DNA of 32,000 nt from Ignicoccus hospitalis KIN4/I (GTDB lineage: Archaea > Thermoproteota > Thermoprotei_A > Sulfolobales > Ignicoccaceae): contig NC_009776.1 of assembly GCF_000017945.1 (NCBI RefSeq), forward strand, positions 960,001 to 992,000, written 5' to 3'. This document shows positions 2,499 to 26,285 of this stretch, one piece after another. The notes under the pieces are model-generated. The model was not told the origin of the DNA and did no database searches. It saw nothing but the letters and a program-made list of their open reading frames with translations. Made by a program: the position numbers and the translations under genes. Each line of letters opens with the position of its first letter. The stretch's first letter is position 1.

Positions 2499-2557
2499 CC
2501 CCCGTGAGGAAACGACGGTAAGCCGAAAGGTGGGGAGCGTTTCCCCTTACCGAGGGG
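2499..2557 (+). ncRNA. candidate box C/D sRNA with non-canonical boxes (sR-a)
   Basis: Stem CCCC 2499-2502 pairs with GGGG 2554-2557. C box GUGAGGA 2504-2510; 12-nt spacer; D' CCGA 2523-2526; linker AAG; C' GUGGGGA 2530-2536 (degenerate); 13-nt spacer; D CCGA 2550-2553. It lies in the convergent deoC/atpE gap. Confidence 0.5.
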
Positions 2558-2558
2558 T

Positions 2559-3185
2559 TCAGAAGCCCAAGGCCTCTAAAACCTTGGGGTATACCTCCCT
2601 CAAGAGCTCGTCGAAGGCCTTCTCGAGGGTGTAGTTGTACCAAACGCCGCCGCTCTTGGACTTGCCCAGCACGCCTCCCTTAATTTCCCTCCCCACTTCT
2701 TTAACGTCCTTGACCTCGACCACGTTCTTCAACCCCTTCTCTTGCACCATCGCCCTCACGTCCTCCAAGTCGTCCGCCCTCACGTAGGCTATTACCTCGT
2801 CCTCGCCGGCCTCGTTAGACATGGCTATCAGCACCTTTTCTAAGAACTTCTTGTACCTCTCGGTCTTCTTCTCGGCCTCCTCGAGGGCCCTCTTCCAAGC
2901 CTCCTCTACCACCTTCTGGAAGAGCTCCTTCTTCCTCTCCTCTACCTTCCTCCTCACTTCCATGTCTATGGAGCTCTTCTCCGCGCTCAGCCTCGCTTGG
3001 GCGTCGGACAGCAGCTTCTCCACGTCTACTACGGCCCTCTCCAAGAGCTCCTCCTTCTTCTCGTTAAGGAGCTTCTCAGCCTCCTTAACGGCCTCCTCCA
3101 CCACGGAGTCTATCTTCGCCTTAGCGTCCTTCTCTATGTAGCTGGTAAGGTTCTTCACGTCGCCCGCGAACTCTACCTTCACCAA
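2559..3185 (-). CDS. atpE: A-type (V-type) ATP synthase subunit E
   Basis: 208-aa protein with a Glu/Lys-rich helical N-terminal half and a globular C-terminal half (GGVLGKSKSGGVWYNYTLEKAFDEL), typical of archaeal AtpE. It sits downstream of atpF. Confidence 0.85.
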   Translation of the reverse strand: MVKVEFAGDVKNLTSYIEKDAKAKIDSVVEEAVKEAEKLLNEKKEELLERAVVDVEKLLSDAQARLSAEKSSIDMEVRRKVEERKKELFQKVVEEAWKRALEEAEKKTERYKKFLEKVLIAMSNEAGEDEVIAYVRADDLEDVRAMVQEKGLKNVVEVKDVKEVGREIKGGVLGKSKSGGVWYNYTLEKAFDELLREVYPKVLEALGF

Positions 3186-3228
3186 GGCTTCCTCCCCCTA
3201 CCCTCAGCCTTCGGAACTTTTTTACCTC

Positions 3229-3537
3229 TCACCCGAAGCCCAACGCCTTTAGTAGGACCTCGTTGGGGTCCAGCTTGGGCGGCTTTTGCTTCCTCCCCGG
3301 AATTAGCGTGACGACGGGCTTGGAGACCTTAGAGGATATCTCCCTCACCTCCTCCTCAATCCCCACGGCTACGTCGTTAGAGACCAACACCACCGCCGCG
3401 TCCGGGGACTTGAGCAGCTCTACCAACCTCTCCTTGGTCTCATCCGGGGAGTTGACCTCGATCACCGAGGCCCCCGCCAGCCGGAAGAGGGGCGCGGTGT
3501 CCGGGTCTGTTATAACGTAGACCTTGCCTTCCTCCAA
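3229..3537 (-). CDS. atpF: A-type (V-type) ATP synthase subunit F
   Basis: 102 aa: KVYVITDPDTAPLFRLAGASVIEV...AAVVLVSNDVA, the V-ATPase F subunit pattern. TTG start with an upstream GGGAGG. Confidence 0.85.
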   Translation of the reverse strand: MEEGKVYVITDPDTAPLFRLAGASVIEVNSPDETKERLVELLKSPDAAVVLVSNDVAVGIEEEVREISSKVSKPVVTLIPGRKQKPPKLDPNEVLLKALGFG

Positions 3538-3570
3538 GCTTTCCTCCCGAGCTCGCTCCTCCTTCCTCTC

Positions 3571-4965
3571 TTAAGACCCTTCGAGCTTACACTCCAGCCT
3601 CGCCCTCCCGAGGGACCAAGCGACCAAGCCCTTGAGCCGCTTGGCCCACCACTCCACAACCTCGTACGCGGAGTCCCAGTCTGCTAGGAGGGCTGCCAGC
3701 CCCGCTGCCGCCACGTCCGCCATTGGGGTGAACACCGCTACGTAGAAGGTGTACAGAGTCTTGTTCCCGGCCAGGTAAACGGCGCTGAGCCCCAGCAACG
3801 CGGAGACCAAGTATAAACTCGCGAGCCACGCGGGCTTGTAGGTCCTCTTCCTCCTCAAGGGGAAGAGCGCGAAAAACGAAATCAGCCCCAACTGCAAGAT
3901 CGAAGGGTTGGTGTAGACGTAGAGCGCGGGGTCCACGTAGAGCGGGCTGGGCTGATTGCCCGTTAGCCAGTCCAGCGGGCTGGCCGGCGGGGGGCCGGAG
4001 GGCCGGGAGGTCAAGAACCACTTGACCCCTCCGACCAGTCGGGAGAGCCACTGGTCGAAGCCCAAGCCCAGTATTATGGGGAGCGAGAGGACCACCAAGC
4101 CCACGGCGAAAGAGCCCAGGGGCCTGAGGAGGGAGCCCAGCGGGCTCTTGCCCCTCTCGTAGCGGTAGACGTAAGCTATCGGTATGAAGTAGAACAAAGC
4201 TGTGTACTTAGAGTTCGACGCCAACGCGTAGAAGAGCGTCGCGAGGGCCGGGCTGAGGGGGAGGGCGGCGAGCGAGAGGACCGAGAAGGAGGCCGCGTAG
4301 CCGTCGAGCATGGCTACCATGCTCATTACTCTGAACGCCTCGTCGAAGTGGAGTAAGAGGAGCGAGCCCAAGGAGAGTATCAAGCTCCTCGAGTACAAGT
4401 AGAGCGCGACGGGGAGGGCGAAGAAGGCCACGGACCCTAAGGCCACCCCGGGGAGCCTCCAGCTAGGGGGAAGGTCTTCTCCGAGCAGCTTCAGCCCTAT
4501 TATGTACTTCGCTAACGGAGGGTGCTCCAAGTTCAAGTACTTTAGTATTCCCTCGTGGTCGGGGTACTTCCAGCCGGGCTGAACCAAGGTTAAGTTGAAC
4601 TTTTCCGCGTCCTTCATGAGCTTCTTTATGCCCTCCGTGGAGTTGCCCACCAAGTAGGCGGCGTTCTCTATTTTTGAGTAGGGCTCCGAGTAGTCTATCC
4701 CGTACTGCGAGGAGTACAAGGAGATAAACTTGGTCAACGCAACTATATCCTTAGCTTGGACGGTTGCGTTGGAGGAGTTGGGGTAGGCGCGGAAGACCTC
4801 CCTCATGAGGTTTCTGGACGCGGACACGTACCACACTTCGTCACTGATGTAGTTGTACTTGAAAGGGGGCTTACTTATGAATTCTATTCCGAAGTTGTAG
4901 AAGTTCAAGGAAAACAGGAAAGAGAGCGCGAGCACAGCGGCCAGCTTCAACCTATCCGCGTTCAA
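3571..4965 (-). CDS. GT-C fold, PMT/ArnT-like (family 39-like) dolichyl-phosphate-dependent glycosyltransferase; polytopic membrane protein
   Basis: 464 aa with many hydrophobic segments and an EHPPLAKYIIGLKLLG motif, typical of the PMT_2/GT39 family. TTG start at 4965. Confidence 0.7.
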   Translation of the reverse strand: MNADRLKLAAVLALSFLFSLNFYNFGIEFISKPPFKYNYISDEVWYVSASRNLMREVFRAYPNSSNATVQAKDIVALTKFISLYSSQYGIDYSEPYSKIENAAYLVGNSTEGIKKLMKDAEKFNLTLVQPGWKYPDHEGILKYLNLEHPPLAKYIIGLKLLGEDLPPSWRLPGVALGSVAFFALPVALYLYSRSLILSLGSLLLLHFDEAFRVMSMVAMLDGYAASFSVLSLAALPLSPALATLFYALASNSKYTALFYFIPIAYVYRYERGKSPLGSLLRPLGSFAVGLVVLSLPIILGLGFDQWLSRLVGGVKWFLTSRPSGPPPASPLDWLTGNQPSPLYVDPALYVYTNPSILQLGLISFFALFPLRRKRTYKPAWLASLYLVSALLGLSAVYLAGNKTLYTFYVAVFTPMADVAAAGLAALLADWDSAYEVVEWWAKRLKGLVAWSLGRARLECKLEGS

Positions 4966-5096
4966 GCCTCTTCTTCCTCTTCGAAGTACTCTTCTTCGAT
5001 CTCTTCCTCTTCTAGGGCTTCCTCCTCCACTATGTAATCCTCTTCCTCTAGGAGCTCCTCCTCTTCTAGCTCTATGAACCTCTCCTCGAAGGACAC
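4962..5096 (-). CDS. putative 44-aa poly-acidic upstream ORF
   Basis: GTG 5096 to TGA 4962 encodes VSFEERFIELEEEELLEEEDYIVEEEALEEEEIEEEYFEEEEEA. Its stop overlaps the TTG start of the GT-C gene (TTGA). ATTTAT (5135-5130 on the minus strand) lies about 33 nt upstream. It is below the ORF-track size cutoff. Confidence 0.3.
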   Translation of the reverse strand: MSFEERFIELEEEELLEEEDYIVEEEALEEEEIEEEYFEEEEEA

Positions 5097-5129
5097 GCCC
5101 GGCCCCTGCGGGGCTGGCTCGAGGTCGAG

Positions 5130-5135
5130 ATAAAT
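5130..5135. promoter_or_regulatory. ATAAAT/ATTTAT TATA-like element in a divergent intergenic region
   Basis: This is the only A/T hexamer between the acidic ORF/GT-C unit and the DedA-like gene. Its position implies the DedA start is internal (TTG 5170 or 5191), not 5137. Confidence 0.3.
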
Positions 5136-5136
5136 C

Positions 5137-5898
5137 TTGCCTCCCCCAGCGCCCTTCGGGAAGCGGTCGTTGGGCGACCCGATAGAGGACTTGACGAAAA
5201 CGTTGCTGTCCTTAACCGAGCGCTACGGCCTCTTCGGAGTTTTCTTAATATCCTTCGTGGGCAACGCCATACCGTACGCCACGGTCCCCTACTTAGCCTT
5301 GATAGCGGCCCTAGCGGCCCAGAAGAGCTTGACCCTCCCGGAGGCGGTTCTCTGGTCCGTAGTGGGGGGCTTGGGGGCTGCCTTGGGGAAGGTAGTGGTC
5401 TACTTGACCGGCGTGGGCACCTCAGAGCTCTTGCCGGAGAAGGTGAGGAAGAACTTCGAGTTGTTCTCTAAGATAGCCCAGAGGGGGATATTCGTAGCGG
5501 TGTTCTTGTTCGCCGCCCTGCCCCTCCCGGACGACGTGCTGTACGTCCCGCTGGGCGTGGCTAGGTACCCCTTGATCAAGTTCTTCTTCGCAGTCTGGTT
5601 GGGCAAAATAATAATTACCTTCTTAAGCATAGCTTTCGGGAACGCGTACTCGAGGATCATGGAGGAGTACAACGTAAACGCTACGGAGAGCGCCATAATA
5701 TTGATAGTTGCCACAGTGGTGTTGATGGTAATAATAGGCAGGATGGACTGGGCCAGGATAGCGATAGCCCTCTCCCAGAGGGGCACCTTGTACGCGCTGT
5801 ACGTGATGAGCGACGAGCTGGCAAAGGCCATAGGCCTCAAGTGGCTGGCCAGAAAAATCTCCTCACTTCTTTCCAAACCTGAGGGAGCTGGTCACTAG
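5137..5898 (+). CDS. DedA/VTT-domain (SNARE-associated) family membrane protein
   Basis: ERYGLFGVFLISFVGNAIPYATVPY, LGAALGKVVVYLTG and FLFAALPLPDDVLYVPLGVARYP are typical of the DedA/TVP38 family. The true start is probably TTG 5170 or 5191. Confidence 0.65.
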   Translation: MPPPAPFGKRSLGDPIEDLTKTLLSLTERYGLFGVFLISFVGNAIPYATVPYLALIAALAAQKSLTLPEAVLWSVVGGLGAALGKVVVYLTGVGTSELLPEKVRKNFELFSKIAQRGIFVAVFLFAALPLPDDVLYVPLGVARYPLIKFFFAVWLGKIIITFLSIAFGNAYSRIMEEYNVNATESAIILIVATVVLMVIIGRMDWARIAIALSQRGTLYALYVMSDELAKAIGLKWLARKISSLLSKPEGAGH

Positions 5899-7942: not shown

Positions 7943-7972
7943 CCTCGGCTTCCGGGGGCGGGGGGACGGGGC

Positions 7973-9028
7973 CTACAAGTACCTTATTATGTTAAAGAAC
8001 GTGTCCCTCTGGGCCGGCACCCTCCCGGAGGTCCTAGCGTAGTGGGCCAACTCCTCCAGCGTAGCGTAGCCGTCGTGGGCTTCCGCAGACCTAAATATCT
8101 TCTCGCTGAAGGCCGTGCCCACCAAGTCGGAGCCGCCGAAGTTGAGCAGCGCGGAGGCGTACTTCTTCCCGTACCCGACCCAGTACACGGATATGTTGTT
8201 GATGAACCCGTTCAGCACTATCCTCGATATGGCTACTACCTTGGCGTCGTAGGGGGCGGGGGCCTCGTGCTTAACCAGTCCCTTCCTCCAGAGCTCCGTG
8301 TTCTTGGGTTTAAACTTCAAGAGGATGAAGGTCAGGAACCCCCCGGTCTTCTCTTGCAGCTCCCTAATCCTCATCAAGTGTCTAATTATGTGCTCGGGCC
8401 TCTCCACGTGCCCGTACAGCATGGTGGCGTTGGTCCTTATGCCCAGCTCGTGGGCGGTTTCGATTGTCCTGAGCCACTCCTCGGCGCTCTTGGCGGGGGC
8501 TATTACCTTGAGGACCTCGTCGTCCAACACCTCGGCCCCTCCGCCGGGCATAGCGTCTAGCCCGGCCTCCTTCAGCCTCTCTAACACTTCCTTCACGCTC
8601 ATCCTATTTATCCTGGCCAAGTAGCTCACCTCGGTGGCCGTCAAGGCTTTTATGGTTAGGAAGGGCCACCTCCTCTTCACTTCTGAGAAGAACTTCTCGA
8701 AGTACTCTACCGTGAGTTCCGGAATTATACCCCCGACCACGTGGAGCTCCGTGGCGCCCAGCCACACGGCCTCTGCAGCTTGCTTCAACATCTCTTCGAC
8801 GGACAAGAAGTAAGCCCCCTCCTCTCCCTTCTCTTTATAAAAAGCGCACAGGGGGCAGCGGTAGACGCAGACGTTGGTGTAGTTTATGTTGTAGTTGGCT
8901 ACGAAGGTAACCACGTCCCCCACGGTCTTCTTCCGGAGATCTTCGGCCATCATGCCTAGCTCGTACAAGTCGTAGTGCCACAAGTCCAAGGCTTCGGAGA
9001 AGCTAGGGGGGTCCTTCGGCGCGCTCAA
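7973..9028 (-). CDS. radical SAM enzyme of the MqnC/MqnE/CofH family (futalosine-pathway type)
   Basis: NINYTNVCVYRCPLCAF (CxxxCxxC), GATELHVVGG, LDAMPGGGAEVL, NATMLYGHVE and LQEKTGGFLTFI. Exact family member not resolved. Confidence 0.75.
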   Translation of the reverse strand: MSAPKDPPSFSEALDLWHYDLYELGMMAEDLRKKTVGDVVTFVANYNINYTNVCVYRCPLCAFYKEKGEEGAYFLSVEEMLKQAAEAVWLGATELHVVGGIIPELTVEYFEKFFSEVKRRWPFLTIKALTATEVSYLARINRMSVKEVLERLKEAGLDAMPGGGAEVLDDEVLKVIAPAKSAEEWLRTIETAHELGIRTNATMLYGHVERPEHIIRHLMRIRELQEKTGGFLTFILLKFKPKNTELWRKGLVKHEAPAPYDAKVVAISRIVLNGFINNISVYWVGYGKKYASALLNFGGSDLVGTAFSEKIFRSAEAHDGYATLEELAHYARTSGRVPAQRDTFFNIIRYL

Positions 9029-9070
9029 AACCTTTTGACCCGTAGCCCCCCGGGCGAGCGAGAGGTTTTC

Positions 9071-9129
9071 AGCGATGAGGGTTACGGGACCTAGTCCGAG
9101 GCGGTGAGGAGGTGGACCGGCCCCGAGCT
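9071..9129 (+). ncRNA. candidate box C/D sRNA with non-canonical boxes (sR-b)
   Basis: Stem AGC 9071-9073 pairs with GCU 9127-9129. C box AUGAGGG 9075-9081; 14-nt spacer; D' CCGA 9096-9099; linker GGCG; C' GUGAGGA 9104-9110; 12-nt spacer; D CCGA 9123-9126. Both box pairs give G:A, A:G, G-C, G-C. Confidence 0.55.
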
Positions 9130-10469
9130 CAGACCTCCATGTCCCTAACTCTGACCTTCAAGTACTTCCGCGGGTCAGCTATCTTGCCCTCCACCGCGCT
9201 CGCCGCCGCAGTGGCGGGGCTCGCTAGGTAGACCTTGCTCGTCCGGTGCCCGCTCCTCCCCCTGAAGTTTCTATTGGTAGTGAACAAGCCCACCTCGTTG
9301 GGGCCCAGTACTCCGTAGTGTGCCCCAACGCACGGGCCGCAAGTGCCGAAGGTGACCAAGCACCCGGCCTCGGTGAGCACGTCCACGTAGCCCTTCTTGA
9401 GCGCTTGCAAGTACACGTTCCTGGAGGCAGTTATGACTATACACCTAGTGTTCGGGGCCACCTTCTTCCCCTTCAGTATCCTCGCGGCCACTGCCACGTC
9501 TTCGAGCCTGCCGTTGGTACAGCTGCCTATGAACACTTGGTCCACCTCTATGCCCTCCACCTCGCTCACCGGAACGGAGTTCGCCGGCGAGTAGGGCTTT
9601 GCCACCATCGGCTCTATCTCGCTCAAGTCGTAGGTGAACTCGTCCTTGTAGTGGGCCCCGGGGTCGGGGAAGGTGAGCTCGGGCTTAGGGACTCCCCTAG
9701 CCCGGCCCTCCACGAACCTCATGACTTCTTCGTCGGCGGGCATGAGGCCTACCTTGGCTCCCATCTCGACCACCATGTTGCTCACCGTCAGCCTGGAGTC
9801 TATCCTCATGTCCTTCAAGCCGTCGCCGACGAACTCCGCGCTCATGTAGGTCGCTCCGTCCTCCTTCAAGTCGCCTATTATCTTCAGTATTAGGTCTTTA
9901 CTCATTACACCCTCCCTAAACTTGCCGATCAGGTTGAACTTGAGCGCCTCCGGGACCTTGAACCATATCCTACCGGTCATCATCGCTATGGCGGCGTCTG
10001 TGGAGCCCACGCCGGTGGCAAAGGAGCCCAGGGCGCCGTAGGTTACTGTGTGGGAGTCCGCCCCCACGAACACCGAGCCGGGCCACGCCCTCCCCTCCTC
10101 CACCATCACTTGGTGGCATATCCCGGTGCCCACGTCGTAGAGGGTGCACTTGTGCTTCCTACAGAACCTCCTCATCTCTATGTGAAGCTCTGAGGTGCCG
10201 GGGTTGTTGCTGGGGGCGGTGTGGTCTATCACGAAGGCTACCTTCTCGGGGTCGAAGACCCTCTCCTCCCCGAACCTCTCCCTCATTACTTTGATGGCAA
10301 GCGGGGCGGTCCCGTCTTGGGCCATTACTCCGTCCACGTCCACTACGACCAGCTCGCCCGGGCTCACTTCCTTACCGACCTTGGCCCCCAGTATCTTCTC
10401 TGCAATCGTGCTCGGCAAGGTATTTCCCCAAAGGGGTTTTGGGAGAGGGATAAGTGTTTTCCCCCTCAC
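9129..10469 (-). CDS. leuC: 3-isopropylmalate/homoaconitate dehydratase large subunit (aconitase family)
   Basis: IDHTAPS, GADSHT, GSCTNGR and NRNFRGR cluster-ligand motifs. Start is GTG 10469 (GTGA overlap with the upstream ORF) or TTG 10418. No small-subunit gene is adjacent. Confidence 0.9.
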   Translation of the reverse strand: MRGKTLIPLPKPLWGNTLPSTIAEKILGAKVGKEVSPGELVVVDVDGVMAQDGTAPLAIKVMRERFGEERVFDPEKVAFVIDHTAPSNNPGTSELHIEMRRFCRKHKCTLYDVGTGICHQVMVEEGRAWPGSVFVGADSHTVTYGALGSFATGVGSTDAAIAMMTGRIWFKVPEALKFNLIGKFREGVMSKDLILKIIGDLKEDGATYMSAEFVGDGLKDMRIDSRLTVSNMVVEMGAKVGLMPADEEVMRFVEGRARGVPKPELTFPDPGAHYKDEFTYDLSEIEPMVAKPYSPANSVPVSEVEGIEVDQVFIGSCTNGRLEDVAVAARILKGKKVAPNTRCIVITASRNVYLQALKKGYVDVLTEAGCLVTFGTCGPCVGAHYGVLGPNEVGLFTTNRNFRGRSGHRTSKVYLASPATAAASAVEGKIADPRKYLKVRVRDMEV

Positions 10470-10825: not shown

Positions 10826-11314
10826 TTGAGGCTGAACAAGAAAGTGGAGGCGGAGATAGCGATAGCGGCCGTCGTAGTGGCTTCGGTTGTGGTAGGCTTC
10901 TTGGCGTATCAATACGGCAAGAGCTCGGCGAGCTGTCTTTACCCAACGGAGAGGAGCTCGGTGCTCCTGAACATGTTCGGCAAGATAGTAGCGGTGCCGC
11001 CGGGCGAGGAGGTCGAGGGGGACTGGGGGAAGGCCTACTACCAGTCCCGCTGCAGCGAGGCGGAGCTGAAGCTGGAGTTCAAGTCGGGCTTAAAGATCTA
11101 CATAGAGGGCAAGCCCAACGGGAACTTAGTGGTGACGAGCGAGTTCAACGGGAAGAAGTGCACTAAGGAGATAGAGGCCGTTCCGGTGTTGCCCTACGTG
11201 ACGGTCACGGCGACCGTTAACAGAGTGCTGGTGAGCGCGTACGGGAGGATACTGGTAATAGACTTACAGCCGGAGCTCAGCTGTAGGATTGCCGGAGTCG
11301 GCGGGGGGCGATGA
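10826..11314 (+). CDS. hypothetical protein with an N-terminal membrane anchor or signal
   Basis: 162 aa. A hydrophobic AIAAVVVASVVVGFLAY follows a charged N-terminus, and the rest is beta-rich with 4 Cys. An AT-rich stretch (about 10780-10800) lies upstream. Confidence 0.5.
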   Translation: MRLNKKVEAEIAIAAVVVASVVVGFLAYQYGKSSASCLYPTERSSVLLNMFGKIVAVPPGEEVEGDWGKAYYQSRCSEAELKLEFKSGLKIYIEGKPNGNLVVTSEFNGKKCTKEIEAVPVLPYVTVTATVNRVLVSAYGRILVIDLQPELSCRIAGVGGGR

Positions 11315-11366
11315 AGAGGGTCCGGTCTTTCGGATCGGTGAAGAGCTGCCGGACCCCTCCCGAGCC
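11307..11366 (+). ncRNA. weaker candidate box C/D sRNA (sR-c)
   Basis: Stem GGC 11307-11309 pairs with GCC 11364-11366. C box AUGAAGA 11311-11317 contains the UGA stop of the upstream gene; 13-nt spacer; D' CGGA 11331-11334; linker UCG; C' GUGAAGA 11338-11344; 15-nt spacer (long); D CCGA 11360-11363. Confidence 0.35.
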
Positions 11367-11368
11367 GC

Positions 11369-13030
11369 TCACTCTATTCCTATCACCACCTCCGGGAGCT
11401 TGTCCTCCGGAACCCCCAGCTTTTTCGCTATCAACTTCTTTAGCTTCTCCTCTATCTCCTCCTCGCTCACCGTGGGCTTCCTGGTCTCTGGGTCCACGCT
11501 CAAGACCTTCAAGCTCCTCGCTATCTCCGGCACGTACTTGAGGAAGGTTATTACCTTCTCCGCGAGCTCCTCTTCCTTCCTCTTCTTAATTATGAACCTC
11601 TTCAGCCTCCTCGCCGCCTCTTGGAGGGCGAGCCTTATCTCGGCCTCTATCTCCGGCACGTCCGCTATGGTGTCCTTGCTCACGTCCTTAAACGGGACCT
11701 TGGTACTCGCCACGTGGACCAAGACCACTAAGGGGGCGGGGAAGGAGACCTCGTAGTTCTTCCAGTTGAGCTCGCTCACCACCTTCCAGCTCACGTCGTT
11801 CCTCTCATTGTAGAGGAGGGGGGTCTTGTTGGCGTACCTAAGCAAGACCGGGGCGTCGGAGGGGGGTATTTCGCCTCCGTAAGCTATGCCCACCTCCACC
11901 ACGAACGGGTGGCCGGAGTAGGAGGAGGGCCTCCTGCTCACCGCAGTTACGAACTCCGGGTTCAACATGCTCTTGAGGCCTATCTTTATGAGCTTCTCCC
12001 CGATAGGCGAGAGGGCTTCCTTGCTGGGGGCCTTGTACCTCTTGGTCGTCCCGTACTCTTTCATCGCGTTGACCAAGGCTTTGATCTGTTCCTCCGTAAG
12101 CTTCTTCGGCTCTAGGTCCGGCTCCAAGCCGGCCATGCTCAATATCGCCTTAGCGGTCTTCGCACCCACCGCTTGGAACTCGGTGGTCAACATCTGGAGC
12201 AAGGTCTTCGCAGTGGTCAGCTGCGCTATCCTCTTCATAGTTTCTATATCTATGCCCAGCGGGTGGGGCTTCACCTCCTTGGGGGGCTTGGGCATTTCCT
12301 TGGTCCTTCTGGGGTATCTAATTAACGTCCCGTCGGGCGTGATTAGGGTTATGTCCGCGTAGGGCGCCACGATGGCAGTCCTCCGGACGTACTCTACGAC
12401 CTTACTCCTCGCCCTCCTCCAGTTCCCCTCTATGATTACGCTCACCCTGGTCCCGTGCCAGTCGCCGGACTTTGTCCACGAGCCCCTTTCCTTCACGTCC
12501 GGCTCGTTGGTGCTTATGTTAGTGGACACCTTGAACCTGTAGGTCATTTTGTCCTTTATAGGGCTGGAAATTACCGTGGCGGGCTCGCCGGTGGTCTTCT
12601 GCGCGTAGAGGACCGCGGCCTTCACACCTAGGCCGTAGGTTCCTCTGGTCTGCCTCTCCACGTACTTGGAGCTGTACAGCATCCTGCCGAAGGCGTAAGG
12701 TATCTTGTCTTGCGGCACCCCGATCCCGTTGTCGTCCACCGTTATTCTGTAAATTCCGTCCTTGGAGCCCTTGATCTCCTTCTTTTCTTCCTCTTCCTTC
12801 GAAGCCTTTGCCTCATTCAGCCTCTCGATAACTATAGTTATTCTGGGCAGTATTCCGTGAGTTTCTGTGGCGTCTAAGGAGTTGTCCAACATTTCCTTAA
12901 CGGTTTGGAATATCGCCCTCGTGTAGTTGTCGAACCCGGTGAGCTCTATGTTGCGGAAGAAGAACTCCGCCGGCCCGATTGCCTTGAAGCGCTCCTCGCC
13001 CCTCTCGCTCTGGACGCGCTGCTTGGGCAT
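11369..13030 (-). CDS. top6B: DNA topoisomerase VI subunit B
   Basis: 553 aa. GHKL ATPase motifs (EMLDNSLDA, DNGIGV, GTYGLGVKA), a helix-2-turn-helix region and a transducer domain. No top6A gene is adjacent. Confidence 0.93.
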   Translation of the reverse strand: MPKQRVQSERGEERFKAIGPAEFFFRNIELTGFDNYTRAIFQTVKEMLDNSLDATETHGILPRITIVIERLNEAKASKEEEEKKEIKGSKDGIYRITVDDNGIGVPQDKIPYAFGRMLYSSKYVERQTRGTYGLGVKAAVLYAQKTTGEPATVISSPIKDKMTYRFKVSTNISTNEPDVKERGSWTKSGDWHGTRVSVIIEGNWRRARSKVVEYVRRTAIVAPYADITLITPDGTLIRYPRRTKEMPKPPKEVKPHPLGIDIETMKRIAQLTTAKTLLQMLTTEFQAVGAKTAKAILSMAGLEPDLEPKKLTEEQIKALVNAMKEYGTTKRYKAPSKEALSPIGEKLIKIGLKSMLNPEFVTAVSRRPSSYSGHPFVVEVGIAYGGEIPPSDAPVLLRYANKTPLLYNERNDVSWKVVSELNWKNYEVSFPAPLVVLVHVASTKVPFKDVSKDTIADVPEIEAEIRLALQEAARRLKRFIIKKRKEEELAEKVITFLKYVPEIARSLKVLSVDPETRKPTVSEEEIEEKLKKLIAKKLGVPEDKLPEVVIGIE

Positions 13031-14409: not shown

Positions 14410-15261
14410 TCAGCCCGCGGGAGTAAATATTGACAGTTGGTACCAGTACTTCTTCATCATTACCGCGTCCTCCTCCAAGTTCGGTGACTCACTTATGAGA
14501 ACTCCCTTAACGTTGAACTCCTTCAACACCTCCAGTAACTCTTTCCACCTCATGTCTGACTCCTCCAAGTTCAAGTGGGTTCCGTGCTTGTCCAGCTTTA
14601 TCCCGGAGACGTGAATGTGCATGTTGTCCAAGGCGAACCTTCCCAACTCCTTCTCCAGCTTCTCGAGGACCGCCCTAAACTCCTCCTTGCTGTTCCAGCC
14701 CTCCCTGTACCTCAAGTGGGCGAAGTCCACGCAGGGGAGCACTATGTCGAACTCTTGGGATAGCTTTATGACCTCGTCCAGTGAGCCGAACTTGCTCTTC
14801 AGCTCCATAGTTTCTGGCCTTATCCACACGTCCAGCCCGAGCTCCTTCACCCTCTCCACTACCTCCGCCAAGGCGTCCCTGATCCTCTTGTACACTACGG
14901 AGGGGGCCTTCTTCATGTACCACCCGGGGTGGAAGACCACGCTCCACCCTCCGGCGGCGTGGAGGACCTTAGCGCTTTGGACTATGTACTCTATGCTCCT
15001 CTTCCTCTTCTCCTCCTCCGGCGAGGCGAGGTTTACGTAGTAAGGGGCGTGGGCGGTCAACACCACGTCCAGCTCCCTAGCCACCTTGCCCGCCTCCCTG
15101 GCCTTCTCCTCACTCATCCTAACTCCCCTGACGAACTCAAGCTCCATGGCGTCCAACCCAAGTTCCTTCACTCTCTTTATTCCCTCTATCACGTTCCTCT
15201 TCTTCGCGGAGTTCGGTATCCCCGCCGGCCCGAACCTAAGCCGGTCTATCTGGAAGGGCAT
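14410..15261 (-). CDS. nfo: endonuclease IV-type AP endonuclease (xylose isomerase-like TIM barrel)
   Basis: 283 aa: [51 protein letters not shown] and ISESPN. These are the metal-ligand His/Asp/Glu positions of AP endonuclease family 2. Confidence 0.85.
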
Positions 15262-15349: not shown

Positions 15350-15601
15350 GTGGAAGTCGTTATAGTGTCGTACAGGAGGGGCTCTAACGACCAGAACCCC
15401 CACCAAGTCTTGGTCCGCTTCCCCAGCTACCGGGACGCCGCCTCCGCCGTGAGGAGCAAGATAATCTACGAGGACGAGCACGGCAACGTATACGTCGGGA
15501 AGGTGTTGAGGCCCCACGGCAAGAAGGGGGTGGCGATAGCGGTATTCAAGCCCAACTTGCCGGGACAGGCGATGGGCAAGGTAGCCAAGGTGGAGCGATG
15601 A
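15350..15601 (+). CDS. rpl35ae: 50S ribosomal protein L35Ae (eL33)
   Basis: 83 aa: VSYRRGSNDQNPHQVLV...GKVLRPHGKKGVAIAVFKPNLPGQAMG, the L35Ae signature. GTG start. Confidence 0.9.
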   Translation: MEVVIVSYRRGSNDQNPHQVLVRFPSYRDAASAVRSKIIYEDEHGNVYVGKVLRPHGKKGVAIAVFKPNLPGQAMGKVAKVER

Positions 15602-15652
15602 GGAGCGCGAACCTCCCCTGAAGGGTGATGGAAACAGCCCGCGGCCGAGCTC
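15593..15652 (+). ncRNA. candidate box C/D sRNA (sR-d), the best example
   Basis: Stem GAGC 15593-15596 pairs with GCUC 15649-15652. C box AUGAGGA 15598-15604 contains the rpl35ae UGA stop; 13-nt spacer; canonical D' CUGA 15618-15621; linker AGG; near-canonical C' GUGAUGG 15625-15631; 13-nt spacer; D CCGA 15645-15648. It exactly fills the tail-to-tail gap. Confidence 0.6.
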
Positions 15653-16094
15653 ATAGGAACTTAGCGCAGTCAGAGGGGACGTAGCCCAAGAACGAGGCCT
15701 CGCCCTCCCCCACCAGCTTTCTTATGGAGGTGGCCAAACTCTTCATGAGCTCGAACATCTCCTTCAAGCTCTCAGCCGCGGGCGGCCTCGCGGCGATTAG
15801 GATCACCTCTTGGTCCTCTTCCGCCGAGATGAGGGCCGGTAAGATGGCTTCTAGCGCTTCCTTCTTCAACTCGTGCTTACCCTTCTTCACCATAATTCTA
15901 ATGACCACTGGGATCAACTTCTTGTTTAAGTTATCGTAATACACCCTCAACGCTACGTAAGGCTCGTCGGAGAAGACCAAATCGAAGCAGTTGGTCCCGT
16001 AGGTCACGCTCTCCTCCGCGGCGGAGAAGGCCTCTATCGAGGGGAGGCCTTGGGCCTCGAACGCCTCGGCCAGCTCTTTCAAGTCGAAGCGCAA
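15651..16094 (-). CDS. hypothetical 147-aa protein
   Basis: This is the C-terminal part of the 320-aa track ORF. An in-frame TTG at 16094 gives MRFDLKELAEAFEAQG.... The upstream part of the ORF is antisense to the CBS gene. No recognisable family. Confidence 0.5.
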   Translation of the reverse strand: MRFDLKELAEAFEAQGLPSIEAFSAAEESVTYGTNCFDLVFSDEPYVALRVYYDNLNKKLIPVVIRIMVKKGKHELKKEALEAILPALISAEEDQEVILIAARPPAAESLKEMFELMKSLATSIRKLVGEGEASFLGYVPSDCAKFL

Positions 16095-16146
16095 CGCGCT
16101 CTCCCCATATAACCTCCGGCCCGGTCGTGAAAACCGGTGGAAGAGG

Positions 16147-18090: not shown

Positions 18091-18283
18091 ATCAAACCCC
18101 GCCTCGCCGCTTACATGCTGGCCTATAATCGGTTCCGCTCGCGCTATAACATAAATACCCCTAAGCGAGCGGCCCCGAGGGCTGATGCCTTGGAATTGAG
18201 TTAACTTTCCCCGGACCCGTCTCGGGAAGGAGAGGAGCCGAGGGCAGCTCCTCAACAACAAAGGAGAGGAGGGGTGGTGCGAG

Positions 18284-20017: not shown

Positions 20018-20030
20018 GGAGGTGGTAGCG

Positions 20031-20321: not shown

Positions 20322-20330
20322 CCTCTCCTC

Positions 20331-20354
20331 CGGGCCCCTTCCAGGAGGGGCCCG
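20331..20354 (+). promoter_or_regulatory. 9-bp GC hairpin abutting the HIT gene start and enclosing its SD sequence
   Basis: CGGGCCCCT (20331-20339) pairs with AGGGGCCCG (20346-20354) across the loop TCCAGG. GGAGGGG (20344-20350) lies in the loop and 3' arm. The TTG start is at 20355. Confidence 0.5.
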
Positions 20355-20768: not shown

Positions 20769-20777
20769 TTTTATTTT
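20769..20777 (+). promoter_or_regulatory. TATA-like box TTTTATTTT for trpB2
   Basis: It lies about 31-39 nt upstream of GTG 20808. GAGGAG lies just before the start. Confidence 0.4.
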
Positions 20778-20807
20778 CCCCAGACCCCAAGCCTTGGGTA
20801 ACGAGGA

Positions 20808-22088
20808 GTGGAGCTTCCGAACAAATGGTATAACATACTCCCCGACCTCCCCAAGCCCTTGGCCCCTCCGAGAGACCCCGAGGGGGCGGAGGAGGAGTTC
20901 TCGAGGATAGAGCTGTTGCTAAAGGTGTTGCCACAAAAGCTCATCTGGCAAGAGAACACCGTGGAGCGCTGGGTCCCCATACCGGACGAGGTGTTGGAGG
21001 TTTACAAGGAAATAGGGAGGCCCACCCCCCTCATGAGGGCGAGGAGGCTGGAGAAGCTCCTAGACACCCCGGCCCGCATTTACTTCAAGTACGAGGGCGC
21101 CACCCCCACCGGCAGCCACAAGATAAACACTGCCGTCCCACAAGCCTACTACGCTAAGGAGGAGGGAGTGGAGGGCCTCACCACCGAGACCGGGGCCGGC
21201 CAGTGGGGCACGGCCTTGGCCTTGGCCGGCGCGATGTACGACATGCCGGTCAAGGTGTTTATGGTGAGGAGCAGCTACCACCAGAAGCCCTACCGCAGAG
21301 TAATAATGAGGCTCTACGGCGCCGACGTCACCCCCTCGCCCAGCGAGGAGACCGAGTTCGGGAAGAAGGTGTTGAGGGAGAACCCCGACCACCCCGGAAG
21401 CTTGGGGATCGCCATGAGCGAGGCCATAGAATACGCTTTGAAGAGGAACTGGAGGTACGGCGTCGGGTCAGTAATGAACTTCGTGCTCCTACACCAATCG
21501 ATCATAGGCCTCGAGGCCATGAAGCAGATGGAGGAGATCGGCGAGGACCCGGACGTGTTAGTGGCTTGCATAGGCGGGGGCTCTAACTTCGGGGGCTTGG
21601 TGTTCCCCTTCTTGGGGCAAGAGCTCCAGAAGACCAAGGACCCCAAGAAGAAGAGGAGGAGGTACGTGGGAGTTACCCCCTCTGAGGTGCCCAAGTTCAG
21701 CAAGGGCAAGTACGAGTACGACTTCGCCGACGCGGCCGGCCTCCTCCCGCAGCTCAAGATGCACACCTTAGGCCACGAGTTCACCCCGCCCCCCATATAC
21801 GCGGGGGGACTGAGGTACCACGGGGTGGCCCCGGCCATATCCTTGCTCTACGAGGAAGGGTGGATCGAAATTATGGAGTACGAACAGAAGGAGTGCTTCG
21901 AGGCCGGCAGGCTCTTCGCCAAGGCCGAGGGAATTGTGCCGGCGCCGGAGACAAACCACGCGATCAAGGCGGTTATAGACCTTGCTTTGGAAGCTAAGAG
22001 GAAGAACGAAGAGATGGTAATACTCTTCAACTTCAGTGGCCACGGGTTGTTAGACCTGGGCAACTACCAGAGCGTCTTGGGCTTGTGA
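20808..22088 (+). CDS. trpB2: tryptophan synthase beta-like protein, TrpB2 class (stand-alone)
   Basis: 426 aa. The N-terminal extension [15 protein letters not shown] is typical of TrpB2. Also [12 protein letters not shown] (PLP Lys), ETGAGQWG and [10 protein letters not shown]. No trpA or other trp genes are nearby. Confidence 0.88.
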
Positions 22089-23797
22089 GGGGATGGCCCC
22101 GAATGCCGGTGCCTTGTCCCTTCTGCGGAGTGGGGTGCAAGCTCAAGGAGGACGGCAAGCCGTTGGGCCCGGTGTGCGGCAAGGGGCTCGAGGCCTTCGA
22201 GTACTACAAGAACGTCTTGGAGAGGCCCCTCCTCCGGGAGGGCGACCTCTTCGTAGAGGTCAGCTTGGAGGAGGCGGCGGAGAGGGCGGCCGAGTGGATT
22301 AGGCAGTCCAAAGCCCCCTTCTTCGCGGGCTCCGCGGAAGACACAAACGAGAGCGCTTGGGCCCTCCAGAAGCTCGCGCGCTTCTTGGGGACCAACGCGG
22401 TGGACCACTGCGGGAGGGTGTGCCACTCCTCGAGCGTGGAGGCTTACAAGCTGATCTTCGGCAAACCCGTAACTCCCTTCAAGATGAGCGATAAGCTCGA
22501 GGAAGTCTTGGTGGTGGGCAGCGACGTCAGCGTGACTTACCCGGTCTTCTGGGGCAAGATAAAGAGGGAGGCCAAGAGGGTTGTGGTAGTGGACGCTTGG
22601 AAGAGCTTCACCATGCTTCAAGCGGACGAGGGGCTCTTAGTTCCCCCGGGCCCGGGCTTCTTGGCCTTCTCAGAGGTTATTTATTCCATAACCTATGGGA
22701 AGGACGTGCCTCGGTGGACGGAGGACTGGGTGGACGTCCGCGAGGTGAAGGAGATCTGGAACTCCTTCGAGAGGCCCTCCTTGGTCCACGGCATGGGCGT
22801 GACCCAGTCCGGCTACGGCTACCAAGCGACGGCGCGCTTGATCTTGGCCACCTTGAAGAGGGGAGGGACCGTCGCCACCCTCAGGGGGAAGGTGAACGTC
22901 CAAGGGGCGGGGGACATGGGCCTCAACCCCTACCCCCCAGCCCCCAGAGAGGCCTTGGAGGAGGCTTGGGGCTTCCCGGTCCCCGCCGAAAGGGGGCCCG
23001 ACCTCGTGGAGGCGTTCAAGGAGCCGAGGGACTTCTACTTGGTCCACTGCCAGAACGTGGTGGCCTCCCTCCCCAACTCTTTCGCCGTGGGGGAAGCGTT
23101 GGAGAACGCGAAGGTGATCCACGTAACTCCGAAGTTTACAGAGACCAGCGTGTTCGCGGACATGATAGTGCCCTCCAGCCCGGTGATCTTCACCACCGGG
23201 ACGGTCACCTCCGGGGACGGCTTGGTGACCGCGGTGAGGACCAGTACCAACAGAGCTTACGAGTTCTTCAGGTTGGTGGCAGAGTACTTGGGCTTGTACC
23301 TTCCTAAGGACGTAAAGGAAGTTACTGAAGAAGCCTTCAGCTTGGTAGACCACTACAAGAAGATAGACGTGAAGCGGCTCTACGCCGGGGAGGACCAGTA
23401 CGTGGAGAAGCCCGAGGGGTGGAGGGAGGTCGACCCGCCGGAGGCCAAGCTCTTGGACTACCACTTGAAGGAGGGCTACTGGTTCTACACCGCCAGGGAC
23501 CCGGCGCTCTGGACGACCAAAGGGGGGACTAAGATGATGAAGAGGCACGCAATGAAGGAGGCGTTCTACTTCGGGGAGGACCCCGGGTGCGAGGCGGTGG
23601 AGGTCTGCTCCGAGGAGACCGGCCGCTGCGTCGAGGGGGAGGTCCGGGTCAGCGAGAGGGTTCCCAAAGGCATGGTCCTCGCGTTCTTCAACCACCTAGG
23701 CCTGAAGGTAAACGCCGTAATACCGTGGGAGCCCAGGGAGCCGACCGGGACGCCGGTCTACAAGGCCGCCAAGGTAAAGGTGAGGTGCCTCAGATAG
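22085..23797 (+). CDS. molybdopterin (Mo/W-bisPGD) oxidoreductase, formate dehydrogenase alpha-like, Cys-type
   Basis: N-terminal CPFCGVGCK...C Fe-S motif. [13 protein letters not shown] aligns with the FdhH VDCCARVUHGPSV active-site segment, with Cys in the SeCys position. A C-terminal [12 protein letters not shown] matches the MopB barrel. Start is GTG 22085 (GTGA overlap with the trpB2 stop) or ATG 22103. Confidence 0.75.
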
Positions 23798-24962
23798 AGC
23801 TCAAGGCTTGGTCCAAGTCGGCCTCCAAGTCCTCCACGTTTTCCAAGCCAACGCTCAACCTCAGCAAGTTGTCCTTTATCCCGAGCTCCTTCCTCACCTC
23901 GGGGGGGACGGTGTGGTGGGTCATGGTGGCGGGGTGAGTTATTATGCTCTCCACCCCTCCGAGGGAGGCGGTCCTCTGAACTACCTTGACCTTCTTCATG
24001 ACCTTTATCGCGTCGAACCCGTTGCCCCTAACCTCGAAGCTCACCACCCCTCCGCAGCCCTTGAGGAGCCTCTTCGCCACCGGGTAGCTGGGGTGCTCCT
24101 CCAAGCAAGGGTAGTAAACCCTCTCAACCTTCGGGTGGTCCCTCAAGAACTTCGCTATCCTCAGGGCGGCCTCGTTCTGGTAGGCGACCCTCACGTGCAA
24201 GGTCTTGAGGCCCCTTATTATGAAGTAAGCTTGCTGGGGGTCGGGGATGCCCCCTAGCATCCTCCTCACGTTCTTCAAGTTGAGTGCGAACTTCTTATCG
24301 TTGGTGGCGAATATACCTCCCAAGACGTCGTTGTGGCCGGCCAAGTACTTGCTGGCGCTGTGCACGACCCCGTAGGCCCCAACCTTCAAGGGCAAGAAGT
24401 TTATCGGGGTGGCGAAGGTGTTGTCAACTATAAGCTTGGCCCCGACCTCCTCGCAAGCCTTAGCTATCTCGTCCACGGGCGGGACTATGAGCAAAGGATT
24501 ACTTATGGTCTCTACGAAGACCACGTCGGTATTCTTGTCTATCCTCTCGAGCACCCCCTCCCCCACCCCTCTCTCGTCCACTTCAATGCCGTACGACCTA
24601 AGGAACGTGGTGAAGAACTCGTAGCTCGTCCCGTAAATGTCCTTAGTGGTGACCAACTTGGACCCCGGCTTGAGGAGGGCCATGGCGGCGGAGCTTATGG
24701 CAGCCATGCCGCTGGAGAAGGCAACGGCCTCCGCGGCCCTTTCTACGGCTGCTGCCTTCCTTTCCAAGGCCTCTATAGTCGGGCTGGAGTTCCTGGCGTA
24801 CTTGTAGCCGTAGGGGTTCCCCTCCGGGTACTTGTATATCGCCGAGACGAAGATAGGAGTGACTATGGAACCCGTCTCGGAGTCCCTATACTCTCCCCCG
24901 TGAACTAGTCTGGTCTCCTCTTCCCAGTCCTCCGGCGGTTCTACGAACACCATCGCCATCAC
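23790..24962 (-). CDS. Cys/Met-metabolism PLP-dependent enzyme (cystathionine gamma-synthase/lyase or O-acylhomoserine sulfhydrylase family)
   Basis: 390 aa: YARNSSPT, the SASKYLAGHNDVLGG PLP-lysine motif and SLGGVESIITHPATMTH. Confidence 0.88.
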   Translation of the reverse strand: MMAMVFVEPPEDWEEETRLVHGGEYRDSETGSIVTPIFVSAIYKYPEGNPYGYKYARNSSPTIEALERKAAAVERAAEAVAFSSGMAAISSAAMALLKPGSKLVTTKDIYGTSYEFFTTFLRSYGIEVDERGVGEGVLERIDKNTDVVFVETISNPLLIVPPVDEIAKACEEVGAKLIVDNTFATPINFLPLKVGAYGVVHSASKYLAGHNDVLGGIFATNDKKFALNLKNVRRMLGGIPDPQQAYFIIRGLKTLHVRVAYQNEAALRIAKFLRDHPKVERVYYPCLEEHPSYPVAKRLLKGCGGVVSFEVRGNGFDAIKVMKKVKVVQRTASLGGVESIITHPATMTHHTVPPEVRKELGIKDNLLRLSVGLENVEDLEADLDQALSSI

Positions 24963-25042
24963 CCCCGCGCATGGCTATCTTCAAGGGCCTCCGGCCGGAC
25001 GCACAAAAAGGCTTTGGGCCCCAGCGAGCCCGGAGCTGAGCC

Positions 25043-25861
25043 TTGCCGGCCTTCCCCCCTGAGCCCGGAGAGAGGGTCGAGGTAGCCATAATAGGGGGCT
25101 CCGGCCTTTACGACCCCGAAATACTGGAGGGCGTCAAGGAGCTCAAGGTCTACACCCCCTACGGCCCGCCGAGCGACAACATAATAGTAGGCACCCTCAA
25201 GGGTAAGAGGGTAGCCTTCCTGCCCCGCCACGGCAGGGGGCACAAGATACCTCCCCACAAGGTCAACTACCGGGCCAACATATGGGCCCTCAAGAGCTTG
25301 GGGGCCAAGTGGGTTATATCGGTCTCCGCCGTGGGCAGCTTGAGGGAGGACTACAAGCCCGGCGACTTCGTAATCCCAGACCAGTTCATAGACATGACCA
25401 AAAAGAGGGAGTACACCTTCTTCGACGGGCCCGTGGTCGCCCACGTGAGCGTGGCCGAGCCCTTCTGCGAGGACTTGAGGAGGCTCGCGTACGAGACGGC
25501 GAAGGAGCTGGGGATAAGGGTCCACGACAAGGGGACGTACGTTTGCATAGAGGGACCCAGGTTCTCCACGAAGGCGGAGAGCAGGATTTGGAAGGAGGTA
25601 TTCAAGGCCGACGTAATAGGGATGACCTTGGTGCCCGAGGTCAACCTCGCTTGCGAGGCGCAGATGTGTTACGCCACCGTAGCGATGGTGACCGATTACG
25701 ACGTGTGGGCGGAGAGGCCGGTGACCGCGCAGGAGGTCATAGAAACCATGCAGAGGAACACTGAGAACGCTAAGAAGCTGTTGTACTCATTGATCCCCAA
25801 GTTGCCGGAGGAGCCGGAGAGGTGCAGCTGCTGCAACTCGCTGGAGACGGCCCTTCTCTAA
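25043..25861 (+). CDS. mtnP: S-methyl-5'-thioadenosine phosphorylase
   Basis: 272 aa: [37 protein letters not shown] and GMTLVPE, with a C-terminal Cys cluster CSCCNS. TTG start. Confidence 0.9.
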
Positions 25862-25914
25862 TAAACCCCGTTTCCTAGCCCCGCCAACGGGTCGCGGAGT
25901 TGGGAAGGAGGAGG

Positions 25915-26229
25915 ATGACCCTACCCAAGGACGAAGAGAGCATGATGAAGATCCAAGAAGAGATAGAGATGGAACACGCTCACGAGCACCACCACCATCA
26001 CCATCATCACCACCACGACATAAACGAGGTCTTGGTCTACATATTGGAGACTTTGGAGGACTTGAAAGAGAGGGTTAAGAGGTGCGAACAGAACGTGGAC
26101 TCCTTACAGAACGACGTTAGGACCCTATACAAGACCGCAGTGTTCACCTTGAGGGCTATAATGAGCGAGGGGGACGAGCGGAAGGAAGCCTTGGAGGACG
26201 CGTTGAAAGCCTTGGAGAAGAAGATATGA
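25915..26229 (+). CDS. histidine-tract coiled-coil protein (hypothetical)
   Basis: ATG 25915 is preceded by GGAAGGAGGAGG; the track ORF begins at TTG 25900. It encodes ...MEHAHEHHHHHHHHHHD... followed by about 65 aa of heptad-like Glu/Lys/Leu-rich sequence. Confidence 0.6.
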   Translation: MTLPKDEESMMKIQEEIEMEHAHEHHHHHHHHHHDINEVLVYILETLEDLKERVKRCEQNVDSLQNDVRTLYKTAVFTLRAIMSEGDERKEALEDALKALEKKI

Positions 26230-26285
26230 GTCGGACTGCCACCGTACAGCTCACCGCTCGCTGAGGGGGCTATTTCTTCATCCCC
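26228..26285 (-). ncRNA. candidate box C/D sRNA (sR-e)
   Basis: Read on the minus strand. Stem GGG 26285-26283 pairs with CUC 26230-26228 (one G:U). C box AUGAAGA 26281-26275 lies in the last codons of the ZPR1 gene; 13-nt spacer; D' GCGA 26261-26258; linker GCG; C' GUGAGCU 26254-26248; 13-nt spacer; D CCGA 26234-26231. The C'/D' pair gives G:A, A:G, G-C, C-G. Confidence 0.5.

Follow-up and report, generated by a model that had tools for sequence, protein, structure and literature searches.

CCGA D boxes and covarying kink-turn positions in box C/D small RNAs of Ignicoccus hospitalis

Five elements in a stretch of 32,000 nucleotides (nt) of the Ignicoccus hospitalis KIN4/I genome (positions 960001-992000 according to the exact positions of the matching small-RNA strings; the whole stretch is referred to as the window) and a sixth one in the same stretch are almost certainly bona fide box C/D methylation-guide small RNAs (sRNAs). 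They had already been catalogued, the five as IHOsR124, 451, 127, 129, and 412, and the sixth as IHOsR411. The terminal D box of all six reads CCGA, which differs from the CUGA consensus. The uniformity of these six is a sampling effect: genome-wide, CCGA is the most frequent state of two positions that coevolve as a pair, position 5 of box C and position 2 of box D. A 2015 study had already published the genes and their expression, together with most of the targets in ribosomal RNA (rRNA), and nothing reported here is new for the annotation of the genome. What may not have been described before is the quantified consensus of the compensated boxes, a result of modest interest.

Catalogued box C/D sRNA genes in the window

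The catalogue of Dennis, Tripp, Lui, Lowe, and Randau (2015; BMC Genomics 16:632, PMC4644070) contains 128 C/D box sRNA genes of I. hospitalis, which were obtained by small-RNA sequencing and a subsequent manual search for GA/AG kink-turn (K-turn) motifs. The topoisomerase VI B encoded in the window is 100% identical to the I. hospitalis protein. When the strings from Additional file 1 of PMC4644070 are mapped exactly, seven published IHO sRNAs match the window letter for letter. They are listed with their window coordinates, strand, published coverage, and boxes.

IHOsR124 (element a): 2500..2562, plus strand, genome position 962500, published coverage 1000; C GUGAGGA, D' CCGA, C' GUGGGGA, D CCGA, terminal stem CCCC/GGGG
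IHOsR411: 2433-2502, minus strand, published coverage 1880; C AUGAGGA, D' GUGA, C' GUGAUCG, D CCGA
IHOsR451 (element b): 9070..9135, plus strand, genome position 969070, published coverage 340; C AUGAGGG, D' CCGA, C' GUGAGGA, D CCGA
IHOsR127 (element c): 11307..11372, plus strand, genome position 971307, published coverage 3760; C AUGAAGA, D' CGGA, C' GUGAAGA, D CCGA
IHOsR129 (element d): 15593..15659, plus strand, genome position 975593, published coverage 4100; C AUGAGGA, D' CUGA, C' GUGAUGG, D CCGA
IHOsR412 (element e): 26222..26285, minus strand, genome position 986285, published coverage 1250; C AUGAAGA, D' GCGA, C' GUGAGCU, D CCGA
IHOsR128: 14410-14460, minus strand, published with fewer than 100 reads

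The small-RNA coverage of the six expressed sRNAs ranges from 340 to 4100 in Additional file 1 of PMC4644070, and their accumulation as discrete small RNAs rests on this published RNA sequencing (RNA-seq). An earlier description of the window, made from its letters alone and called here the sequence-only reading, had recognized elements a to e as archaeal box C/D sRNAs, and all five are identical to published sRNA strings. The same description had warned that standard C/D-box searches would miss such genes, which does not agree with the presence of all five in the RNA-seq-based catalogue of 2015.

The strings at the five positions have the lengths (59, 59, 60, 60, and 58 nt), C boxes (GUGAGGA, AUGAGGG, AUGAAGA, AUGAGGA, and AUGAAGA in elements a to e), and terminal CCGA that the sequence-only reading had assigned to them, and its C-to-C' offsets of 26, 29, 27, 27, and 27 follow from the strings. 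The elements are organized as a stem of 3-4 base pairs, box C, a spacer of 12-14 nt, NNGA, a linker of 3-4 nt, a second 7-nt box, a spacer of 12-15 nt, and CCGA. Positions 1-4 of box C read RUGA in all six sRNAs, and positions 5-7 are GGA, GGG, or AGA, not UGA. In the terminal D box, position 2 alone departs from CUGA in 6/6, and both C1 and the GA of the sheared pairs are retained. The consensus letter of the D box is missed and its structural requirement is kept. The internal D' and C' boxes are accompanied by guides of 10-15 nt and linkers of 3-4 nt. Three to five complementary bases flank C and D in 6/6; one nucleotide (L1) is positioned between the terminal stem and box C, and the parsing of the stem is offset accordingly. 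The genes differ in nothing from the published I. hospitalis set, whereas in comparison with the textbook RUGAUGA/CUGA they have G or A at position 5 of box C and C at position 2 of box D.

The family had been described as having five members. All five were recovered, whereas IHOsR411, which also ends with CCGA, had been overlooked. The proposed C' pattern NUGANNN does not cover the C' box of element a, which is GUGGGGA and contains no UGA. This box has a G at 2b, lacks the A of GA, and is degenerate. UGGGGA boxes with G in place of A at 2b form the C' box of IHOsR124 (2530-2536) and box C of IHOsR441 (AUGGGGA with CCGA), and occur in several C and C' boxes of Methanopyrus kandleri. Such boxes depart from the K-turn consensus more than CCGA does.

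The complete architecture is rare by chance. A scan that required a stem of at least 3 base pairs (bp), boxes C, D', and C', a D box of the form [CG][CT]GA, and compatible K-turn pairs 3b:3n and 4b:4n identified 6 loci in the window, compared to a mean of 0.13 per dinucleotide shuffle (maximum 1 in 100 shuffles). A comparison of this kind had been suggested in the sequence-only reading, and its outcome supports the family. It is scarcely conceivable that the elements lack an RNA function and represent chance combinations of motifs, or hairpins or terminators at the 3' ends of genes. This explanation could draw on the location of all the elements at gene 3' ends, the absence of an rRNA target of IHOsR451, and the internal GGGGA/UCCCC hairpin of IHOsR124. 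However, there are six architecture loci where 0.13 are expected, abundant small-RNA reads were published for all six, complementarities to rRNA of 10-12 nt are in the correct N+5 register, and orthologues are conserved. The chance or terminator explanation is refuted as far as sequence analysis and published RNA-seq allow.

Other plus-strand GTGAGGA heptamers are located at 5443, 15449, 20014, 21264, 23234, and 28749, exactly as listed previously, and neither CCGA nor CTGA was found 10-15 nt after any of the six. A true D box beyond CCGA, such as CAGA after element b, was considered and discounted, since the terminal stems and guide register fit CCGA. A candidate from a relaxed scan at 15137-15192 (minus strand) was discarded as well: it is inside a coding sequence (CDS) and has poor boxes.

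No Rfam family matches the window at gathering thresholds. In the E-value mode, seven of the eight weak matches are full-length archaeal CD-box sR families on elements b, c, and d, with scores of 16-22 bits compared to cut-offs of 36-54. The CD-box families compared were sR1, sR10, sR14, sR17, sR41, sR43, and sR47, of which sR14 is one of the sub-threshold full-length matches of element b. The C/D families of Rfam are guide-specific, and therefore a miss at the gathering score is expected, and the elements are not members of those families.

D-box usage and covariation of K-turn pairs

The boxes were parsed in 108 of the 128 published I. hospitalis sRNAs, namely those that had a coverage of at least 100 and were parsable. 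Their terminal D boxes are CCGA in 47, CUGA in 27, GCGA in 12, GUGA in 5, and CGGA in 5 sRNAs, and the rest have rarer forms. The claim of the sequence-only reading that the D box is always CCGA is true in the window only, since CCGA is a plurality genome-wide (47/108).

Position 5 of box C and position 2 of box D form the K-turn pair 3b:3n, which follows the G.A and A.G pairs. This mapping had been made correctly from the window, and the pair is mostly G-C genome-wide: G:C 54, U:U 13, G:U 11, A:U 8, A:C 4, and A:G 4. The mutual information of the two positions is 0.42 bit, a value that was reached by 0/10000 shuffles. The pair 4b:4n, formed by position 6 of box C and position 1 of box D, is G:C in 80 and C:G in 16 sRNAs, with a mutual information of 0.57 bit that was also reached by 0/10000 shuffles. 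The internal C'/D' motifs covary likewise (G:C 33, U:U 17, C:G 15). A direct example is element e, in which C' GUGAGCU is opposite D' GCGA, so that 3b:3n is G:C and 4b:4n is C:G.

The consensus RUGAUGA/CUGA fits only about one quarter of terminal K-turns of I. hospitalis, and similarly of M. kandleri, and the dominant form is the compensated UGAGGA/CCGA. Because of this dominance, searches by pattern or covariance model that were trained on sets from Pyrococcus, Sulfolobus, or Pyrobaculum are expected to under-score these genomes. The sRNAs also constitute a natural data set of about 200 K-turns and kink-loops (K-loops) with covarying 3b:3n and 4b:4n, which bears on the folding rules established by the Lilley laboratory.

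Terminal D boxes in published sRNAs of three other archaea have the following distribution.

M. kandleri: CCGA 32, CUGA 20, 71 parsed
Sulfolobus acidocaldarius: CCGA 1, CUGA 47, 60 parsed
Thermoproteus tenax: CCGA 2, CUGA 39, 43 parsed

Some xUGAUGA boxes of S. acidocaldarius and T. tenax were mis-registered by the parser, and the D-box counts alone were used for these two species. Both CCGA cases in T. tenax are opposite a UGAGGA C box. The list of Nanoarchaeum equitans (26 entries, read by eye and not parsed) contains no CCGA. The sRNAs of Sulfolobus, Thermoproteus, Nanoarchaeum, and other Thermoprotei have the same architecture and function as those of I. hospitalis, and some Thermoprotei sRNAs share the D guide of IHOsR411, which targets 23S GAGACAGGUC; unlike IHOsR411, they have the D box CUGA. 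In a scan of a genome collection, sRNAs with the IHOsR411 D guide and complete architecture have CUGA in 16/16 cases among the matches listed, mostly together with AUGAUGA. The 16 sRNAs belong to Sulfolobales, Acidilobaceae, Desulfurococcaceae, Ignisphaera, Thermogladius, and I. pacificus.

The variant had been proposed to be lineage-specific, which does not hold, since M. kandleri has the bias as well. The sRNAs of M. kandleri (Su et al. 2013; Dennis et al. 2015) resemble those of I. hospitalis in the plurality of CCGA, the UGAGGA C boxes, and the occasional UGGGGA. In contrast to I. hospitalis, many CCGA boxes of M. kandleri, which belongs to a different phylum, face UGACGA with C:C at 3b:3n (11 cases), and the Watson-Crick covariation is weaker. 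The CCGA bias is real, common to two unrelated GC-rich extreme hyperthermophiles, and absent from relatives and other GC-rich Thermoproteales.

Orthologues of IHOsR129 were identified in a related metagenome-assembled genome (MAG), the topoisomerase VI B of which is 79% identical, and in I. pacificus (loci L001 7361-7421, minus strand, and L005 7722-7782, plus strand). The boxes and both guides are kept while the flanks have diverged. This is the pattern of conservation that had been put forward as a check of the elements. The D box of IHOsR129 is CCGA in I. hospitalis and the MAG, and CUGA in I. pacificus. At C'/D', I. hospitalis has a U:U pair. The MAG has G:C there, which is a double compensatory change, and I. 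pacificus has A:U. In another sRNA, IHOsR55, the MAG has the D box CCGA where I. hospitalis has CUGA.

The changes of state among orthologues bear on the possibility that the CCGA bias is a passive effect of composition, neither an adaptation nor a distinct class of K-turns. Position 2 of box D would tolerate C or U, a GC-rich genome would drift to C, and position 5 of box C would follow to G. We regard this origin as a serious candidate, although one that falls short of being probable. The tetramer CCGA is present 258 times and CTGA 139 times on both strands of the window, and this 1.9-fold excess is close to the D-box ratio of 47:27. The orthologues of IHOsR129 and IHOsR55 switch freely between the states, the intermediates G:U (11) and A:C (4) occur at 3b:3n, and M. 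kandleri, the other biased species, is also GC-rich (61%). However, T. tenax (55% GC) and Pyrobaculum calidifontis (57% GC) have a similar GC content and keep CUGA (39/43 in T. tenax), and a Thermogladius locus at 57% GC has GUGAUGA with CUGA. Furthermore, the strong covariation at two positions indicates that the pairing is under selection.

Guide complementarity and folding of the K-turn

The 16S rRNA (1449 nt, lacking one internal stretch) and the 23S rRNA (3045 nt) of I. hospitalis were rebuilt from the alignments in PMC4644070, and positions are given in the rebuilt numbering. The guides were searched for Watson-Crick runs that include the N+5 position, with 300 shuffles per comparison. 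A Watson-Crick run of 11 nt joins the D guide of IHOsR411 to 23S (N+5 at 2751), and one of the same length joins the D' guide of IHOsR412 to 16S (N+5 at 1149); 0/300 shuffles were as good in either case. The D guide of IHOsR412 forms 12 bp including one G-U at 16S 1124, which is 25 nt upstream of the D' site. In IHOsR127, the D' guide pairs over 9-10 nt with one arm of a 23S helix and the D guide over 10 nt with the other arm; the N+5 positions are 2496 and 2517. The guides of IHOsR124 have Watson-Crick matches of 8-9 nt to 23S with N+5 at 2742 and 399, and the D guide of IHOsR129 pairs over 8 nt with 16S and places N+5 at 76, the site that had been published for it. The alignment of spacers to rRNA, which the sequence-only reading had recommended, thus provides matches for IHOsR412 (11 nt and 12 bp) and IHOsR127 (9-10 and 10 nt), shorter ones for elements a and d (8-9 nt), and none for IHOsR451. 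The targets predicted in PMC4644070 are three in 23S for IHOsR124, two in 23S for IHOsR127, one in 23S for IHOsR411, one in 16S for IHOsR129, and two in 16S for IHOsR412, and none is marked for IHOsR451.

The target hairpin of IHOsR127 is GACCGGACCCC...GGGGGUCCGGC. Since the guides of IHOsR127 pair with both strands of this hairpin, they are partly complementary to each other. The targets of IHOsR411 and IHOsR124 are separated by only 9 nt in 23S (N+5 at 2751 and 2742), and this pair of sRNAs is directed to one rRNA neighbourhood.

Genome-wide, pairing of at least 10 nt including N+5 was found for 24% of the D guides upstream of CCGA (2.4% in shuffles, n=46), 33% of those upstream of CUGA (2.2% in shuffles, n=27), and 25% of those upstream of GCGA (1.4% in shuffles, n=12). 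The enrichment over shuffles is approximately tenfold. The guides next to CCGA match rRNA about as often as those next to CUGA, indicating that the CCGA boxes look functional.

Human U4 small nuclear RNA (snRNA) reads AAUGAGG...CCGAGGC with G-C at 4b:4n, which is nearly the I. hospitalis consensus GCCGAUGAGGA...CCGAGGC. The protein 15.5K/Snu13 is the eukaryotic homologue of L7Ae. The K-turn in the 5' stem-loop of U4 snRNA, which is bound by 15.5K/Snu13, has a 3-nt bulge, G.A and A.G pairs, and G-C at 3b:3n, as in I. hospitalis (PMC4382518). Unlike the I. hospitalis sRNAs, U4 is spliceosomal, has a closed pentaloop, and has no guide function, and the likeness is at the level of the motif, not of common descent. 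The K-turns of U4 snRNAs are strongly biased to G-C or G-U at 3b:3n (PMC4382518). A Watson-Crick pair at 3b:3n abolishes the folding of K-turns in metal ions alone, as determined by the Lilley laboratory, and both box C/D and U4 K-turns fold upon the binding of L7Ae (PMC4382518). Archaeal box C/D K-turns were described from older sRNA sets as strongly U:U at 3b:3n (PMC5689011), and the skew of I. hospitalis and M. kandleri is not reflected in that description.

The sequence-only reading had considered a special recognition by L7Ae. However, archaeal L7Ae folds the U4 K-turn with G-C or G-U at 3b:3n in vitro (PMC4382518). Because a U4-like G-C K-turn folds with L7Ae, and CCGA, CUGA, GCGA, and GUGA coexist in one cell, no lineage-specific recognition by L7Ae is needed. 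It is very unlikely that the elements represent a K-turn variant confined to this lineage, to which L7Ae or Nop5 would have had to adapt in turn and the genes of which were overlooked by standard methods. The lack of Rfam matches in the window at gathering thresholds, the strong U:U preference in the older K-turn surveys (PMC5689011), and the exclusive CUGA of the 16 sRNAs with the IHOsR411-type D guide, among the matches listed from other, mostly Thermoprotei, genomes and MAGs, would be in agreement with such a variant. However, the genes were found and published in 2015, the guide specificity of the Rfam C/D families makes a gathering-score miss expected, and M. kandleri, an unrelated euryarchaeon, has the same bias. 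In addition, CUGA, GCGA, and GUGA boxes are present in the same cell with equally good rRNA guides, and one set of proteins must serve them all, and archaeal L7Ae folds the U4 K-turn with G-C at 3b:3n (PMC4382518).

In the proposed mechanism, each RNA of about 50-60 nt would fold so that tandem sheared G.A pairs of C/D, and internally of C'/D', build a K-turn or K-loop. By analogy with the family, L7Ae would bind these motifs, and Nop5 and fibrillarin would then assemble. The spacers of about 12 nt upstream of D' and D are predicted to pair with rRNA, in which the nucleotide opposite the fifth guide position would be 2'-O-methylated. Three of the RNAs, in which the stop codon or final codons of the upstream gene fall within box C or adjoin it, are probably co-transcribed with that gene and subsequently trimmed to a protein-protected core, after the scheme of Tripp et al. 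2017. CCGA is one state of the coevolving pair, with 3b:3n mostly G-C (UGAGGA/CCGA) instead of U.U (UGAUGA/CUGA). The pair 4b:4n flips coordinately, with UGAGCN opposite GCGA and UGAUCN opposite GUGA. Together these changes give a K-turn that resembles that of U4 snRNA, with Watson-Crick pairs throughout stem II. At growth temperatures between 80 and 100 °C, the G-C pair at 3b:3n plausibly makes the short non-canonical stem more rigid, with the folding still dependent on L7Ae.

The skew and the covariation are direct observations of this analysis, and they may have an adaptive meaning. Our tentative proposal, which we consider possible but doubtful, is that I. hospitalis and, independently, M. 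kandleri shifted their C/D K-turns and C'/D' K-loops from U.U to U4-like G-C, with flips at 4b:4n (UGAGC/GCGA, UGAUC/GUGA), as an adaptive reinforcement of stem II near 100 °C that was not explicitly described before. A discussion of CCGA or G-C covariation in Ignicoccus was not found in the searchable text, and this search did not include the logos in Additional file 2 of Dennis et al. 2015 or Tripp et al. 2017. That Additional file contains published sequence logos of the boxes (PMC4644070). Lui et al. 2018 examined the variability of K-turn positions in Pyrobaculum and Pyrococcus only.

Several points weigh against the interpretation of the elements as methylation guides with a compensated K-turn. 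The methylation sites and the ribonucleoprotein binding of these RNAs are predictions from the sequence, the family, and published expression, and the evidence for expression consists of figures from a published supplement. The guides of IHOsR451 have no significant complement in the rebuilt 16S and 23S, and the matches of IHOsR124 and IHOsR129 of just 8-9 nt are not individually significant in GC-rich rRNA. The parsing of boxes in the 128 sRNAs was heuristic and included six manual corrections. Finally, given the excess of CCGA tetramers in the window, composition alone could explain part of the D-box bias.

Gene context and minor features

The gene contexts that had been described for the five elements are all confirmed by the positions of genes in the window. 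According to a passage in PMC7994747 that summarizes Tripp et al. 2017, a location at the 3' end of a gene and a stop codon in box C are general traits of archaeal C/D sRNA genes. Element a is positioned in the gap between the convergent DeoC-like (1722-2459, plus strand) and V-ATPase E (2559-3185, minus strand) genes. The gap that contains element b on the plus strand is bordered by two minus-strand genes (7973-9028 and 9129-10469). The TGA in box C of element c (11312-11314) is the stop codon of an open reading frame (ORF) at 10826-11314, and on its other side the element borders on topoisomerase VI B (11369-13030, minus strand) at the 3' end of that gene. The TGA in box C of element d (15599-15601) is the stop codon of rpl35ae (15350-15601). 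Box C of element e overlaps the last codons of a ZPR1-like gene (26270-26848, minus strand).

The orthologue of IHOsR129 in the MAG again overlaps the rpl35ae stop codon. The overlap is not kept in I. pacificus, where the orthologue is located between a PaREP1 gene and a PIN-domain gene. In the MAG, the place next to the 79%-identical topoisomerase VI B holds a small Zn-ribbon-like ORF, and no orthologue of IHOsR127 was found there; this fits the known mobility of such genes. The I. islandicus locus contains one weak candidate only.

IHOsR451 is antisense to both flanking minus-strand genes, which means that it is not co-transcribable with them, and its published coverage (340) is below that of the other five. 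In its 3' part, IHOsR411 runs antisense to the last stretch of the DeoC-like gene. IHOsR411 on the minus strand and IHOsR124 on the plus strand form a divergent back-to-back pair that shares 3 nt at the 5' ends (2500-2502, GGGG/CCCC).

ARAGORN detected no tRNA in the window. A weak match to an Rfam astrovirus frameshift element at 21621-21674 (plus strand) is inside a CDS (18 bits compared to a 70-bit cut-off, E = 2.4) and is regarded as chance.

The seventh published string, IHOsR128, reads AUGAUGA...CUGA, has no recognizable C'/D', and was not recovered by the architecture scan. It is probably a weak or false prediction and thus a doubtful member of the catalogue. IHOsR128 is located wholly in the last 51 nt of a CDS of the AP_endonuc_2 family (14410-15261, minus strand), the stop codon of which is inside its CUGA D box.

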